In this document: one piece after another, positions 5,524 to 14,662 of the stretch
Layout of the letters: the number at the start of each line of letters is the position of its first letter
Numbering within the stretch: position 1 is the stretch's first letter
IMG/VR virus record: IMGVR_UViG_3300035498_000693
Location: 1-17,898 of that record
Strand: one strand, 5' to 3'
DNA: 17,898 nucleotides
Origin: a virus
Position numbers and translations under genes: made by a program
The notes under the pieces: model-generated
Databases searched by the model: none
Told to the model about the DNA's origin: nothing
What the model saw: the letters and a program-made list of their open reading frames with translations, nothing else

Positions 5524-5554
5524 TTGATTTTTTATAAAAAATAATATATATAAA
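5524..5554 (+). promoter_or_regulatory. Promoter, member of the repeated TTGATTTTTTATAAAAA family
   Basis: TTGATT at 5524-5529 followed by TTTTATAAAAAATAATATATATAAAT; -10 candidates TATATA/TATAAA at 5547-5554. Same 17-mer as at 7162, 12534 and 14634. Confidence 0.5.
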
Positions 5555-5595
5555 TATATGAACATTGAAAATAAAATATTAAAGGAGAATGTCTA

Positions 5596-7119
5596 ATGGA
5601 AATTTTATCAAAAATCCCTATTGTTCCTATTGCTATTGTAATAGCAGTAATCTTGTTAGTTGTAATATTCTTTTATCTATGTTATAAGAAATGTCCACCT
5701 AATAAAGCTATGGTTATTACGGGACCAAGAGGAACTAAGACTATAATTGGTAAGGCTTGTTTTATAATTCCTTTTATTCAACGAGCAGATTATATGTCAT
5801 TAGAGAATATTCAGGTAGATTTCACATCAAGAGATGAAATCCCAACTAAAGATGCTATTAATGTATTAGTTGATGCAGTAGCAAATATGTCTATTTCTAA
5901 AGACCCAGACATATTAAAGATTGCTTCTTCAAAATTTCTAGGCTATAGTACAGAAGCTATTCAGGCTATTGTTACTCCAGTTCTTGAAGGTAATATTCGT
6001 GAAATTATTTCTCAGACTTCTTTGAAAGAATTAATTCAAGGTGATAAAAAAGTCTTTGCGGAAAGGGTTGTGGAAAATGTAGCTCCAAATCTTCGTGATA
6101 TGGGTCTTGAACTTACAACTTTTAATATCCAGAATTTTAAGGATAAGAATGGAGTTATTGATAATTTAGGTATTGAGAACACTGTTCAAATTTCAAAAGA
6201 TGCTAAGAAAGCACAGGCGGCTGCGCAGGCTGAAATCGCCATAGCTCAGGCTCAGGCAAATAAAGAAGCTAATGAAGCAGAAGTTGCATCAGAGGCAGAG
6301 ATTGCTAAGAGAAACACTGAATTAGCTATTCAGAAATCTGAATTAAAGAAACAGTCAGATATAAAGAAAGCTGAGGCGGAAGCTGCAAAGGGTATTCAGG
6401 CTGAGGAACAGAGAAAGGTACTTGAAATTTCAACAGCTAATGCAAACTTAGCAAAGCAGGAGAAAGAAATTGAATTAAAGGAAAGAGAAGTTTCTATAAA
6501 AGAGAAAGCTCTTGAAGCTGATGTAAAGAAAACTGCGGAAGCTCAGAAATATGCGGCTCAGCAGGAAGCTGATGCTAGACTTTATACTACTCAAAAGCAG
6601 TCTGAAGCAGAGTTGTTTGAAAGACAAAAGAAAGCTGAAGCTGAAAAGTTTGAAGCAGAGCAGTCCGCTGAGGCAACAAAAGCTACTTCTGAAGCACAGA
6701 AAATTGCTATGGAGAATGAGGCGGCTGGTATCCGCGCAAAGGGTGAAGCTGAAGCCGCAGCTATTCAGGCTAAAGCAATTGCTGAAGCTGAAGGTATTTC
6801 AAAGAAAGCTGAAGCTATGAAACTCTATGGGGAGTCCGCGCAGATGGATATGAAATTGGAAGCATTAAAGTTATTTTTTGAACAGCTTCCTGCTATTGCA
6901 CAGGCTACTGGAGAGGCTTATACTAATGTTGACCGAATTGTTATGCTTGGAGGAGATTCTTCTAAGTTAACCGGAGACATTATTAATAATGTAACTCAAA
7001 TTACAGAAGGTGTGTCAGAATCTCTTGGTATTGATTTAAAGGCTTTACTAAGTGGATTTTTAGGAGGTTCTCTTGTAAAAGAAAAGTCTACTGATAACAC
7101 AGAGGATGTTTTAGAATAA
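5596..7119 (+). CDS. floT: Flotillin (FloT/YuaG/YqiK-type SPFH / band-7 protein), 507 aa
   Basis: N-terminal TM helix (IPIVPIAIVIAVILLVVIFFYL), then an SPFH core (KAMVITGPRGTKTIIGKACFIIPFIQRADYMSL ... NLRDMGLELTTFNIQNFKDKNGVIDNLG). A long Glu/Ala-rich coiled coil of EA repeats follows. The C-terminal 'LPAIAQA...IVMLGGDS...SLGIDLKALLSGF' block is colinear with B. subtilis FloT (509 aa) and E. coli YqiK. Confidence 0.85.
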   Translation: MEILSKIPIVPIAIVIAVILLVVIFFYLCYKKCPPNKAMVITGPRGTKTIIGKACFIIPFIQRADYMSLENIQVDFTSRDEIPTKDAINVLVDAVANMSISKDPDILKIASSKFLGYSTEAIQAIVTPVLEGNIREIISQTSLKELIQGDKKVFAERVVENVAPNLRDMGLELTTFNIQNFKDKNGVIDNLGIENTVQISKDAKKAQAAAQAEIAIAQAQANKEANEAEVASEAEIAKRNTELAIQKSELKKQSDIKKAEAEAAKGIQAEEQRKVLEISTANANLAKQEKEIELKEREVSIKEKALEADVKKTAEAQKYAAQQEADARLYTTQKQSEAELFERQKKAEAEKFEAEQSAEATKATSEAQKIAMENEAAGIRAKGEAEAAAIQAKAIAEAEGISKKAEAMKLYGESAQMDMKLEALKLFFEQLPAIAQATGEAYTNVDRIVMLGGDSSKLTGDIINNVTQITEGVSESLGIDLKALLSGFLGGSLVKEKSTDNTEDVLE

Positions 7120-7126
7120 CGCAAAG

Positions 7127-7160
7127 AAAAGAGTGAACTATCAAGTTTACTCTTTTTTTA
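7127..7160 (+). terminator. Rho-independent terminator
   Basis: AAAAGAGTGAAC-tatcaa-GTTTACTCTTTT, a 12-bp stem with one G·U, followed by TTTTTTT, 8 nt after the flotillin stop. Confidence 0.7.
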
Positions 7161-7161
7161 T

Positions 7162-7190
7162 TTGATTTTTTATAAAAATTATATTATAAT
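7162..7190 (+). promoter_or_regulatory. Sigma-A-type promoter, TTGATT-17-TATAAT
   Basis: TTGATT at 7162-7167, 17-bp spacer, TATAAT at 7185-7190, immediately after the terminator. Confidence 0.65.
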
Positions 7191-7226
7191 ATATTTATAA
7201 TAAAAAGTTGGAAGAAGGTTATAATA

Positions 7227-12597: not shown

Positions 12598-13007
12598 TGA
12601 GAGATAAAATGTATAAAAAATATCAGCATAAATTAAATAAGAAAATAAAAGAAGCAAATAAAAATCTTGAAAAAGATGCTGTTTTTCTTGGGAGATTTAT
12701 AATTAGACAAAAAGAAGCTAGATGGGAAAGGTTTGAAGATGGTTCAGGCGGAGTCCTTCATACCATTCTTCGTGTAGCTGACAAAAAAACAGAATACTAC
12801 AAAGATTATCTTTTTGACTTTTCAGATTCAGATTTTATGGATTGGGAACTTTATATGGTTATCCTTAATGGATTTATTATTAATGATTTGAATTTATGGA
12901 ATAATGAGAAACCAAGAGAAGCAAAAGAGGATTGGACAAAAATTTCAATTAATGAAGAAATTTTTAAAAAAGGATATAATTTTTTCCAAAGATATAGGAG
13001 AGACTAA
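12598..13007 (+). CDS. Hypothetical protein (about 136 aa)
   Basis: ATG at 12598 downstream of AAAGGAAA. The longer track ORF from 12534 would start inside the promoter. No motifs recognised. Confidence 0.45.
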
Positions 13008-13008
13008 T

Positions 13009-13402
13009 ATGTTATTAAAAGATAAATTTAAAATGGGAGATATAGTTAAACTTAGAAATGGTGAAATCTGTATTGTATTTCCTGATAGTACCATTGAAGG
13101 AATTGGTCTTTATAGATTTCAAAAAAAATAGTTTTAGATTTGCTAAGCATGTTGATGAATATGATGAAACTTTAAATTCTAAAAAAGAATCTAAATTTGA
13201 TATAGTTGCTTTTTATAAAAGTCCAACTTCATATCAGACAGTTTTGAGAGATACTATAAATTATTTAATTCAAGGAAGAATAGATGAAATAAGTATCCCT
13301 TGGGATTGGAAAAGAGAAAAGCCTATAAAAGAAATGACAATAGAAGAAATTGAAAAGACATTAGGATATAAAATAAAAATTGTGAATAAAAAGGAGGACT
13401 AA
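13009..13402 (+). CDS. Hypothetical protein split by a +1 frameshift at an A8 homopolymer (two ORF pieces, 13009..13131 and 13121..13402)
   Basis: ATG at 13009 with RBS AGGAGAG. Frame 1 reads MLLKDKFKMGDIVKLRNGEICIVFPDSTIEGIGLYRFQKK and then stops. Frame 2 continues KKNSFRFAKHVDEYDETLNSKKE...IVNKKED to a stop at 13402. The two frames overlap exactly at AAAAAAAA (13121-13128). The frame-2 piece has no RBS of its own. Confidence 0.5.
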
Positions 13403-13405
13403 TCT

Positions 13406-14599
13406 ATGTTAAACAAAGATGGTCAAAGAGAATTAGCTTATGTGGCGGTGATTGAGGAAATAAGACCTATCCCAAATTATGATAGAGTTGAACAGGCGCG
13501 AGTAGGCGGATGGTGGGTTATAGTTAGAAAAGACCAATTTAAAGTTGGAGACTTAGCAATTTATATAGAAGTAGATTCAAAAGTTCCAGAAAAAGAACCT
13601 TTCATGTTTCTTGATAAGAGAAATTTTAAAGTAAAAACTTTAAAAATGTGTAAAGTCTTATCTCAAGGGCTATTGATGGCGCCTGAAGATTTTGGTTGGG
13701 AAGTAAAAGACACAGGTACAATAGTTACTCCAAAAGGAGAGTTTATTGAAGGCGACTTCTTAACAAAAGAACTGGAAATAACTTATGCGGATGCCGAGGA
13801 TAATAAGCGTAAAGCGAACTCTGCAGATAAATATAAGAAGATGGCTCAGCGTAGACCTGACTTATTTAAGAAATCTTGGGCGCGCTGGATGATGAGACGC
13901 GATTGGGGAAAGAAAATCATGTTTTTCTTCTTTGGAAAAAAGAAGGATAGTAAGACTGCGTGGCCGGCTTGGGTAACAAAGACTGACGAAGAACGAGTTC
14001 AAAATATGACTTGGATACTAGAAGATAAAGAGCCTTGGATAGCAACAGAAAAAATTGATGGTACATCAACAACTGCAACTTACCGTAAGACAGGAAGAAA
14101 GAAACATGAATATTATATTTGTTCAAGAAATGTAGTATTTAATGTTCCGGGTAAAGAAAAAGAACAGTGCTACTATGAAACTAATGTTTATACTGAAATG
14201 TCAGAAAAATATCATTTTGAAGAAGTCCTTGAACAGATAGCTAATGAATATAATCTTGAATGGGTAACACTCCAGGGCGAGGTCTATGGGAGCGGAATCC
14301 AGAAAAGAGATTATAGTATGGAAGGACATGATTTTGCAGGATTTAACTTAATTTTCTCTGATAGAGGAAGATTAAATTCTATTGAAGCTAAAAACATTCT
14401 TGCAAAATATGGAATTTCTTGGGTGCCAATAGTGAATGAACATTTCGTTCTTCCTGATGATTTAGATGAATTACTTAGCACAGCAGACGGAAAATCTGAA
14501 ATAGATGGTGGTATGCGCGAAGGTTTGGTATTCCGTTCTTTAGACGGAGCCCGCTCATTTAAAGCAGTTAGTAATAGTTTCTTAATAAAATATCACTAA
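13406..14599 (+). CDS. ATP-dependent RNA ligase (Rnl2/Rnl5-like nucleotidyltransferase with an N-terminal extension)
   Basis: RBS AAGGAGG. Motif I 'ATEKIDGTS' (KxDG lysine-adenylate site) lies about 210 aa from the N-terminus. Motif IV-like 'LQGEVYGSGIQK' and motif V 'EGLVFRSLDGARSFKAVSN...LIK' follow. The N-terminal ~150-aa OB-like module is as in the Naegleria/Deinococcus Rnl5 type. Confidence 0.7.
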   Translation: MLNKDGQRELAYVAVIEEIRPIPNYDRVEQARVGGWWVIVRKDQFKVGDLAIYIEVDSKVPEKEPFMFLDKRNFKVKTLKMCKVLSQGLLMAPEDFGWEVKDTGTIVTPKGEFIEGDFLTKELEITYADAEDNKRKANSADKYKKMAQRRPDLFKKSWARWMMRRDWGKKIMFFFFGKKKDSKTAWPAWVTKTDEERVQNMTWILEDKEPWIATEKIDGTSTTATYRKTGRKKHEYYICSRNVVFNVPGKEKEQCYYETNVYTEMSEKYHFEEVLEQIANEYNLEWVTLQGEVYGSGIQKRDYSMEGHDFAGFNLIFSDRGRLNSIEAKNILAKYGISWVPIVNEHFVLPDDLDELLSTADGKSEIDGGMREGLVFRSLDGARSFKAVSNSFLIKYH

Positions 14600-14609
14600 T
14601 AAAAATTTA

Positions 14610-14639
14610 AAGGGCTAACTATATGTTAGCCTTTTGATT
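14610..14639 (+). terminator. Rho-independent terminator fused to the next promoter's -35
   Basis: GGCTAAC-tatat-GTTAGCC, a perfect 7-bp stem extendable by A/T and G·U pairs, followed by TTTTGATTTTT. Confidence 0.7.
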
Positions 14640-14662
14640 TTTATAAAAAAATATATTATAAT
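14634..14662 (+). promoter_or_regulatory. Sigma-A-type promoter, TTGATT-17-TATAAT
   Basis: TTGATT at 14634-14639, 17-bp spacer, TATAAT at 14657-14662. Confidence 0.65.

Follow-up and report, generated by a model that had tools for sequence, protein, structure and literature searches.

We analyzed a 17,898-nucleotide (nt) stretch of viral DNA (positions 1 to 17,898 of the IMG/VR record IMGVR_UViG_3300035498_000693; hereafter, the window), in which a short intergenic cassette recurs ahead of accessory genes, three of its copies sharing the 17-mer TTGATTTTTTATAAAAA exactly. These repeats are very likely copies of one clade-specific, near-perfect promoter of the sigma-70/sigma-A type, which is often fused to a terminator and would bound units of gene content that can be swapped among related phages. 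Judged by sequence, the cassette sites carry every hallmark of sigma-70/sigma-A promoters fused to intrinsic terminators, and the genes that follow them are the leading genes of operons.

Predicted promoters in the window

The exact 17-mer occurs at 5524, 7162, and 12534, in all cases on the + strand. When up to three mismatches were allowed, 16 matches were found, compared with 2.5 expected, and none of 200 shuffled sequences reached this number. The pattern TTGA[CT]T-N17-TATAAT has five matches, all in intergenic DNA, on the + strand and none on the - strand (0.10 occurrences expected from first-order Markov shuffles), which bears out the claim of an earlier sequence-only reading of the window that the repeated 17-mer and its TTGATT-17-TATAAT geometry are real. 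A consensus scan combined with a reading of the junctions placed perfect copies of TTGATT-17-TATAAT at 7162, 9965, 12534, and 14634. The window contains six predicted sites, including a degenerate copy, and all six are intergenic, lie on the gene strand, and are followed 35 to 45 nt downstream by a ribosome-binding site (RBS) and an ATG codon. They have the six highest scores in the window for a 51-nt position weight matrix (PWM) of the promoter family (next best position, -1.2); five good copies score 33 to 53, and the copy at 5524 scores 11.9. The cassette also constitutes the largest direct-repeat family of the window (D1), in which the likeness among copies extends for approximately 45 to 50 nt from the -35 hexamer onward. 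The six sites (J0 to J5) are as follows.

J0, 2817..2845, + strand: predicted promoter, TTGACT-17-TATAAT, PWM score 37.2; heads the + strand gene block
J1, 5524..5552, + strand: degenerate promoter copy with the exact 17-mer; TATATA at a 17-bp spacing or TATAAA at a 19-bp spacing
J2, 7162..7190, + strand: predicted promoter with the exact 17-mer, TTGATT-17-TATAAT, PWM score 53.3; ahead of the six-gene Thg1 operon (7227-9953)
J3, 9965..9993, + strand: predicted promoter, TTGATT-17-TATAAT with a TGa extended -10; ahead of the MVP-shoulder/SPFH gene (10030-12486)
J4, 12534..12562, + strand: predicted promoter with the exact 17-mer, PWM score 51.7; ahead of genes 12597-13007 and 13058-13402 and the RNA ligase gene (13406-14599)
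J5, 14634..14662, + strand: predicted promoter with a one-base-shifted variant of the 17-mer (T5-AT-A7), TTGATT-17-TATAAT, PWM score 49.6

The sequence-only reading had described four junctions that share the 17-mer and TATAAT. This description stands for J2 and J4; J5 carries the shifted variant rather than the exact 17-mer, and the TATAAT attributed to J1 is not there. Five copies have the hexamers and spacing of a housekeeping promoter, and J1, with its TATATA, does not. The -35/spacer half of J1 scores well (22.1), its -10/downstream half scores poorly, and its start region is off consensus; the copy lies 44 nt upstream of the start codon of a flotillin/SPFH gene. The reading of the 9965 junction as a TTGATT-17-TATAAT variant with TGa was correct. 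J0, which belongs to the same promoter class, lies outside the coordinates considered in that reading and was missed by it; it is located in a divergent intergenic region, opposite virion genes on the - strand. The genes behind J5 comprise a zinc-finger gene, an AAA_33 kinase gene, a metallophosphoesterase gene, and a gene at 16181-16603. The spacer sequence T6-AT-A6 forms a perfect 14-nt palindrome at 12538-12551 and also at 5528-5541.

Predicted terminators and transcription units

Four terminators (T1 to T4) were predicted downstream of the cassette-driven genes.

T1, 7124..7159, + strand: intrinsic terminator with a 16-bp stem followed by a T-run; -17.2 kcal/mol, z -5.1; adjoins J2
T2, 12504..12541, + strand: intrinsic terminator with a GC core at 12513-12533; -19.8 kcal/mol, z -6.7; U-tract overlaps the -35 of J4
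T3, 14600..14643, + strand: intrinsic terminator with a GC core at 14613-14631; -18.7 kcal/mol, z -5.9; U-tract overlaps the -35 of J5
T4, 16633..16669, + strand: terminator; -18.0 kcal/mol, z -6.5; closes the last cassette-driven unit

A stop codon lies 5 to 30 nt upstream of each of these elements, in which a GC hairpin is followed directly by a U-tract; T3 also reads as a terminator on the - strand. The proposed arrangement of a hairpin whose U-tract runs into the -35 hexamer was recovered at 7124-7159, 12504-12541, and 14600-14643, and three of the six window promoters are composite elements of this kind (i.e., promoter plus stem-loop). The hairpins in the window are unlike one another in sequence, and only the promoter half is conserved. 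Folding revealed no significant structure upstream of 2817, 5524, or 9965 (z of ~0 at 5524 and 9965), in agreement with the earlier description of the 5524 copy as hairpin-less.

These signals delimit four predicted terminator-bounded units, namely, J0 to T1 (with the weak J1 inside), J2 to T2 (with J3 inside), J4 to T3, and J5 to T4. The five autonomous units of the sequence-only reading were thus an overstatement: two of the promoters are internal, and because no terminator precedes the promoters at 5524 and 9965, not all of the units would be autonomous. No promoter of the cassette class was found between T4 and the holin and endolysin genes, so these lysis genes would need another (possibly late) promoter or read-through.

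Relatives and clade-wide promoter consensus

A Megablast search with the entire window found no DNA match among 50,697 records of cultured or deposited phages, and an exact-protein look-up did not find the sequence of its MVP-like protein on record. The sole protein-level match was to this MVP-like protein, at 42% identity, in uncultured megaphages of 460 to 735 kb (LR756500/1/3). We identified 45 relatives of the protein in IMG/VR contigs, mostly of 130 to 200 kb, with 52 to 61% amino acid identity, and 66 further relatives in rumen and human-gut metagenomes; no closer relative of the window was found in metagenomes above ~73% amino acid or ~74% nucleotide identity. Viral and metagenomic loci that conserve the MVP-shoulder/SPFH protein number more than 100, with identities of 52 to 73%, and an exact search of viral contigs for the 17-mer plus TATAAT retrieved at least 120 loci, often with multiple copies per contig. 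Since the relatives of the endolysin in bacterial genomes are nearly all from Lachnospiraceae/Clostridia, the host is probably a Gram-positive gut anaerobe of the Clostridia type. The 45 viral loci (887 kb), which represent the region around the MVP-like gene rather than whole genomes, served as the sample of relatives; genes were predicted with a codon-usage-scored caller and grouped into protein families, and 27 non-redundant genomes (window included) were used for synteny.

In these loci, the core promoter pattern occurs 137 times on the gene strand versus 13 times on the opposite strand. The consensus logo of 108 unique sites reads TTGATTTTTt-WW-AAAAA-tTaTGn-TATAAT-ATATATaTAA, followed by an A-rich leader, and several positions of the spacer hold 1.1 to 1.5 bits of information. 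With the PWM (score of >20), we detected 285 sites on the + strand and 16 on the - strand (i.e., a strand bias of 18:1). Of the + strand sites, 279 (98%) are intergenic in DNA that is 79% coding, and the -10 hexamer lies a median of 40 nt from the start codon. The exact 17-mer of the window is the second commonest variant in the family (10 of 195 sites). A TG at -15/-14, a typical trait of Gram-positive sigma-A promoters, occurs in 77% of the sites and speaks for a host of this type.

A GC hairpin ends within 8 nt upstream of 38% of the 195 family promoters (window included), compared with 4.5% of random positions. An abutting hairpin goes along with a stronger T-run and a weaker G and A in the -35 hexamer, indicating, in line with the sequence-only reading, that T residues are common to the terminator U-tract and the promoter; the A-run and TG are conserved equally with or without a hairpin. 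The possibility that the spacer T-run is purely a terminator U-tract was rejected, as the T-run, and especially the A-run, is conserved in 119 hairpin-less promoters. The rest of the spacer appears to be a promoter feature, or possibly an operator feature.

Selection rather than recent copying

We compared the cassettes at their variable positions and obtained an identity of 0.572 for promoters of the same genome, 0.546 for promoters of different genomes, and 0.581 for promoters ahead of the same gene family elsewhere. For the window promoters, the corresponding values are 0.554 within the window and 0.549 relative to other genomes. The within-genome excess is statistically detectable and trivial in size, and the hairpins are unrelated, which argues that the near-identity of the 17-mer represents convergence under selection; recent duplication or gene conversion of the cassettes (0.57 within versus 0.55 between genomes) was rejected on the same grounds. 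On these comparisons, the near-identity of the copies is attributable to purifying selection toward a clade-wide consensus and not to recent copying. Strong selection for one promoter type, which was one of the two explanations offered in the sequence-only reading, is thereby upheld, given that 45 relatives with just 52 to 61% protein identity contain approximately 290 copies of the same extended consensus, spacer included. Two further candidate explanations were discarded, namely, chance in AT-rich DNA (in view of the match and site counts reported above for the window) and an RNA gene or a mobile repeat (the window contains neither an Rfam family nor a tRNA).

Cassettes as boundaries of exchanged modules

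Pairs of neighboring gene families are adjacent elsewhere in 7% of comparisons across promoter-bearing gaps versus 31% across promoter-less gaps, and of the pairs for which both families occur in the other genome, 28% and 74%, respectively, remain adjacent; synteny breaks are thus approximately four times commoner at promoter-bearing gaps. The cargo behind the cassettes is diverse: 152 promoters precede 84 gene families, the units have a median of three genes, and 26% of the first genes are singletons. The MVP gene, a single-gene module, has 20 neighbor families upstream and 20 downstream, with a promoter upstream in 20 and downstream in 23 of the 27 non-redundant genomes. A check proposed in the sequence-only reading (i.e., whether the same cassette flanks different cargo genes in related phages) therefore gave a positive answer. 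Among relatives, the flotillin, Thg1, MVP, ligase, and kinase modules appear in permuted order, and the RNA-repair components assort independently, with kinase/phosphoesterase genes in 33, ligase genes in 24, and Thg1 genes in 17 of the 45 loci. Because adjacency breaks at promoters, the cargo is diverse, and the module order is permuted, the predicted transcription units are the units of shuffling, and the predicted modules delimited by cassettes are demonstrably the blocks reshuffled among relatives. Selection for intact, self-sufficient units explains most of this pattern of modularity. Genes turn over within operons too, and most small open reading frames (ORFs) of the window are singletons. 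For 9 of its 22 + strand genes, none of the 45 relatives has a homologue.

We propose that each promoter would consist of a -35 TTGAyT, a fixed 17-bp spacer (a T-run, two W, and an A-run), often a TG, and TATAAT, followed by an ATATAT..AA start region, an A-rich leader, and a strong RBS about 40 nt on. In ~40% of cases, the promoter would be fused to the terminator of the preceding unit, whose U-tract extends into the -35 hexamer and the T-run of the spacer. Transcription by the host RNA polymerase holoenzyme would begin at each cassette, run through a short operon (one to six genes in the window), and stop at the next hairpin, such that the accessory modules (i.e., SPFH/flotillin, Thg1, MVP-like, RNA ligase, and kinase/phosphoesterase) would be insulated from each other and from the lysis genes. 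Since start and stop signals are built into every module, modules may be gained, lost, and reordered as blocks, in the manner of morons or of PeSLs, the promoter/stem-loop elements of T4-like phages. The analysis directly establishes the motif statistics, the placement and orientation of the sites, their conservation, the stability of the hairpins, and the synteny breaks; we infer the use of host sigma-A, the early timing suggested in the sequence-only reading, and termination at the hairpins.

Points against the promoter reading and alternative explanations

Several observations weigh against this reading of the cassettes as host-type promoters that bound swappable units. J1 is probably a weak promoter. 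The TG extended -10 is present in only one of the six window copies (9965), compared with 77% of the sites scored (window included). Extended sites are absent from 440 kb of Clostridia-type loci (46% GC, and only a proxy for the host) versus 0.33 per kb in the phage loci, and the motif as an ordinary host promoter is accordingly not supported. Because the sampled host-type loci lack extended sites, the conservation of the spacer and start region exceeds what a host promoter needs, and the excess may encode regulator binding or unusual strength. Two MVP-bearing loci (L143 and L165) contain no promoter of this class and no PWM score of >12, which suggests that this sub-lineage has a different promoter consensus or host. 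Finally, endolysin similarity is the single line of evidence for the host assignment itself.

The spacer (T5-6 W2 A5-6) might serve as an operator for a dimeric phage regulator that switches the whole class (e.g., in early shut-off), which we consider improbable. Such a role would fit the information content of the spacer positions in the 108 sites, the A-run that is equally conserved without an upstream terminator and is thus not explained by a U-tract, the absence of the motif from the sampled host-type DNA, and the fact that the spacer reads alike on both strands, as seen in reverse-strand matches to the 17-mer and in the T6ATA6 palindrome at 12538-12551. In addition, the gene at 2884-3528 behind J0, present in 20 loci, has a weak match to the CodY helix-turn-helix (HTH) domain (E value of 0.0024); however, this match is sub-threshold, and no regulator was identified. 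Moreover, the run lengths shift by one base (T5/A7 at 14634 versus T6/A5-6) while the register of the -35 and -10 hexamers is held, which suits a requirement for DNA shape or AT-richness better than a fixed operator with two half-sites. In phage early promoters of very high strength (e.g., those of T5), spacers that are AT-rich and contain tracts are a known trait. It is scarcely credible that the motif is read by a phage sigma factor or RNA polymerase or that it is a chance product of intergenic DNA of 27 to 30% GC. The lack of the extended motif in the host-type loci would be consistent with the former, and a loose generic promoter scan of the window (95 hits versus 98.5 expected) shows no excess and indicates that AT-rich DNA yields many weak look-alikes. 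However, TTGAyT, the 17-bp spacing, TG, and TATAAT together constitute the canonical housekeeping-sigma consensus, and neither a sigma factor gene nor an RNA polymerase gene was found in the window by Pfam/PHROGs annotation. Chance, in turn, is excluded by five co-oriented intergenic sites where 0.10 were expected and ~290 more in the relatives at the strand bias given above.

The sequence-only reading had also suggested that the cassettes act as recombination handles. As in PeSLs, homologous recombination between the ~45-bp promoter cores, either at separate sites or in phages that co-infect a cell, would excise, insert, and swap modules, possibly via mini-circles, in addition to the promoter role. 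The cassettes would then be an active cause of the mosaicism and not just borders of functional units. We regard this as possible, and somewhat less than probable, because most indel edges lie elsewhere, their counts are non-independent, and the ends of BLAST segments are biased. Breakpoints were mapped by BLAST in closely related pairs among the relatives rather than at the junctions of the window, because the collections contain no relative with >75% nucleotide identity to the window. Of 112 indel edges, 56% are intergenic, compared with 24% expected, and 23 (20%) fall within promoter windows, which account for 3.2% of the sequence; among the intergenic edges, 18 of 63 (29%) are at promoters versus 11.4% expected (~2.5-fold). 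These counts, together with the fourfold excess of synteny breaks, partly support a handle, as do a clean promoter-to-promoter replacement between two relatives (L128:6300-6526, a promoter plus tRNA-Gln, versus L154:5636-6529, a gene for 169 amino acids [aa]), the finding that DNA homology between the window and more than 20 relatives begins at 9958-9965, i.e., exactly at the -35 of J3, and the precedent of the PeSLs (PMC2839356, PMC4122927). However, ~80% of the edges are not at cassettes, and many are inside genes or far from any promoter. In the commonest type of break, the promoter is common to both genomes, the first gene differs, and the junction falls in the 5' untranslated region or RBS; such junctions, like those within genes, are compatible with joins that arose illegitimately or through short homology and then passed through selection. 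Gene turnover inside operons (e.g., the five small ORFs flanking Thg1, which have no homologue in any relative), the lack of cassette homogenization or concerted evolution within genomes, and the short, AT-rich conserved stretch with no hairpin in common also argue against a handle, and the synteny pattern is expected already if selection does no more than keep operons intact. The edge counts themselves are not phylogenetically independent and are biased by BLAST segment ends being drawn into conserved promoters.

In one relative, a cassette-type promoter precedes a tRNA-Gln(UUG) gene (L128:6349-6522), and the equivalent slot of the other (L154:5644-6153) is occupied by the 169-aa gene, which looks NADAR/YbiA-like. 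Insertions of 1.1 to 1.3 kb within otherwise collinear genes of close relatives (L149:15894-17221 and L156:18022-19098) look like introns or homing-endonuclease elements.

Gene content and composition of the window

The principal genes of the window, annotated with Pfam and PHROGs, are as follows.

349-2736, - strand: virion/tail-like genes (Pfam/PHROGs)
2884-3528, + strand: first gene behind J0; CodY HTH match under the Pfam cut-off; 20 loci (window included)
3708-4424: metallophosphoesterase (Pfam/PHROGs)
5596-7119, + strand: SPFH/Band 7 flotillin-like gene, 507 aa (PF01145, 2.3e-19; PF15975)
7887-8759: Thg1-like (PF04446, 9e-32)
10030-12486: MVP-shoulder/SPFH protein, 818 aa (Pfam/PHROGs)
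13406-14599: RNA ligase (PF09414/PF21189; phrog_968, 4.6e-63)
15076-15582: AAA_33 kinase (Pfam)
15597-16181: metallophosphoesterase (Pfam)
16710-17054: holin (phrog_6918)
17023-17880: amidase endolysin (Pfam/PHROGs)

The module labels given from the letters alone (flotillin, Thg1, MVP, ligase, and Pnk) agree with these annotations, the last of them corresponding to the AAA_33 kinase and metallophosphoesterase. The RNA-repair toolkit (i.e., the Thg1-like 3'-5' polymerase, the RNA ligase, and the kinase plus phosphoesterase) is divided among three predicted units; an earlier paper remarks on Thg1 as an RNA-repair gene that turns up sporadically in phages (PMC7824862). The window contains neither an integrase nor a repressor. 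The GC content reaches 42% in the 3' half of the flotillin gene and is 33 to 36% in the MVP gene, compared with 24 to 27% in the small ORFs, including those adjoining the flotillin gene. The flotillin and MVP-like genes have short DNA repeats in common (5955-5992, 6759-6796, 10836-10867, and 10977-11014), which probably reflect their common SPFH domain.

Significance and comparison with known systems

The window exemplifies a PeSL/moron-like organization of predicted promoters and terminators in a new, probably Clostridia-infecting phage clade, and not a new kind of element. The analysis yields a promoter/terminator model (the 51-nt PWM, with its strand bias and 98% intergenic placement) for an abundant clade of uncultured gut and rumen phages, which can serve for defining operons, for predicting accessory genes transcribed by the host polymerase, and for locating the borders of modules on metagenomic contigs. 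The principle of PeSLs and morons, namely, that phage mosaicism trades in self-contained transcription units, is thereby extended from T4-like and lambdoid phages to a further clade, and the window provides a second, independent example of the PeSL principle. It is rather doubtful that, going further, a non-T4 clade has independently evolved PeSL-type mobile cassettes whose homologous exchange shuffles counter-defense modules among gut and rumen phages. If this were true, a single T stretch would be terminator U-tract, -35 flank, and promoter spacer at once, the shuffled modules would be Thg1, RNA ligase, kinase/phosphatase, vault/SPFH proteins, and even tRNA genes, and the palindromic T-run/A-run spacer might also be a common operator for a phage-encoded switch.

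PeSLs of the T4-like phages RB49/phi1, PST, and nt-1 combine a strong sigma-70-like early promoter with a stem-loop terminator, and approximately 50 of them per genome are located in hyperplastic regions ahead of ORFans; their promoter and terminator activities were demonstrated experimentally, and modular shuffling and mini-circles were proposed (PMC2839356, PMC4122927). The cassettes of the window resemble them as intergenic promoter-terminator composites present in many copies in variable accessory regions, ahead of variable or ORFan genes, where they bound blocks that differ between related phages; the dual role proposed for PeSLs (i.e., transcription insulation and recombination point) is likewise the one considered here. 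In contrast, the present phages are uncultured gut and rumen phages, and nothing in the window is T4-like: a T4-like myovirus is not indicated by the 50,697 records without a DNA match, the megaphage protein at 42% identity, or the Clostridia-type endolysin. The stem-loop is always upstream of the -35 here, with a U-tract that overlaps it, whereas the PeSL stem-loop often sits between the hexamers or covers them; conservation covers ~45 to 50 bp with unrelated hairpins, compared with ~100 bp in PeSLs; and recombination from cassette to cassette is weakly supported. Because of these differences in phage type, hairpin placement, extent of conservation, and proof of recombination, the window cassettes are PeSL-like rather than PeSLs in the strict sense.

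Dense arrays of short operons occur in Gram-positive or large lytic phages; in the host-takeover module of phage SPO1, every operon has a strong RBS and a very strong promoter for the host sigma factor (PMC6873191). The window shares this layout of short operons with a predicted strong promoter and RBS; it has no sequence relationship to SPO1, T5, or T4, and its cargo consists of RNA-repair and SPFH/vault-like proteins rather than small host shut-off proteins. Phage early promoters (e.g., those of the T5 and T4 classes) are conserved beyond the two hexamers, for example, in AT-rich tracts.

Morons of lambdoid phages are reportedly extra genes placed between others, with their own promoter and terminator and often of deviant composition (the description is credited to Juhala et al., 2000). 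Typically, a moron is a lone insertion into a late operon of a temperate phage and is expressed by the prophage. In the window, by contrast, the whole region is tiled with one promoter type, often ahead of multigene operons, in a seemingly large genome of the lytic type. The description of a moron suits the flotillin gene, with its GC content of up to 42%, and the MVP-like gene (33 to 36% GC versus ~25% next door), which combines a predicted promoter of its own (J3), a predicted terminator of its own (T2), and a deviant composition.

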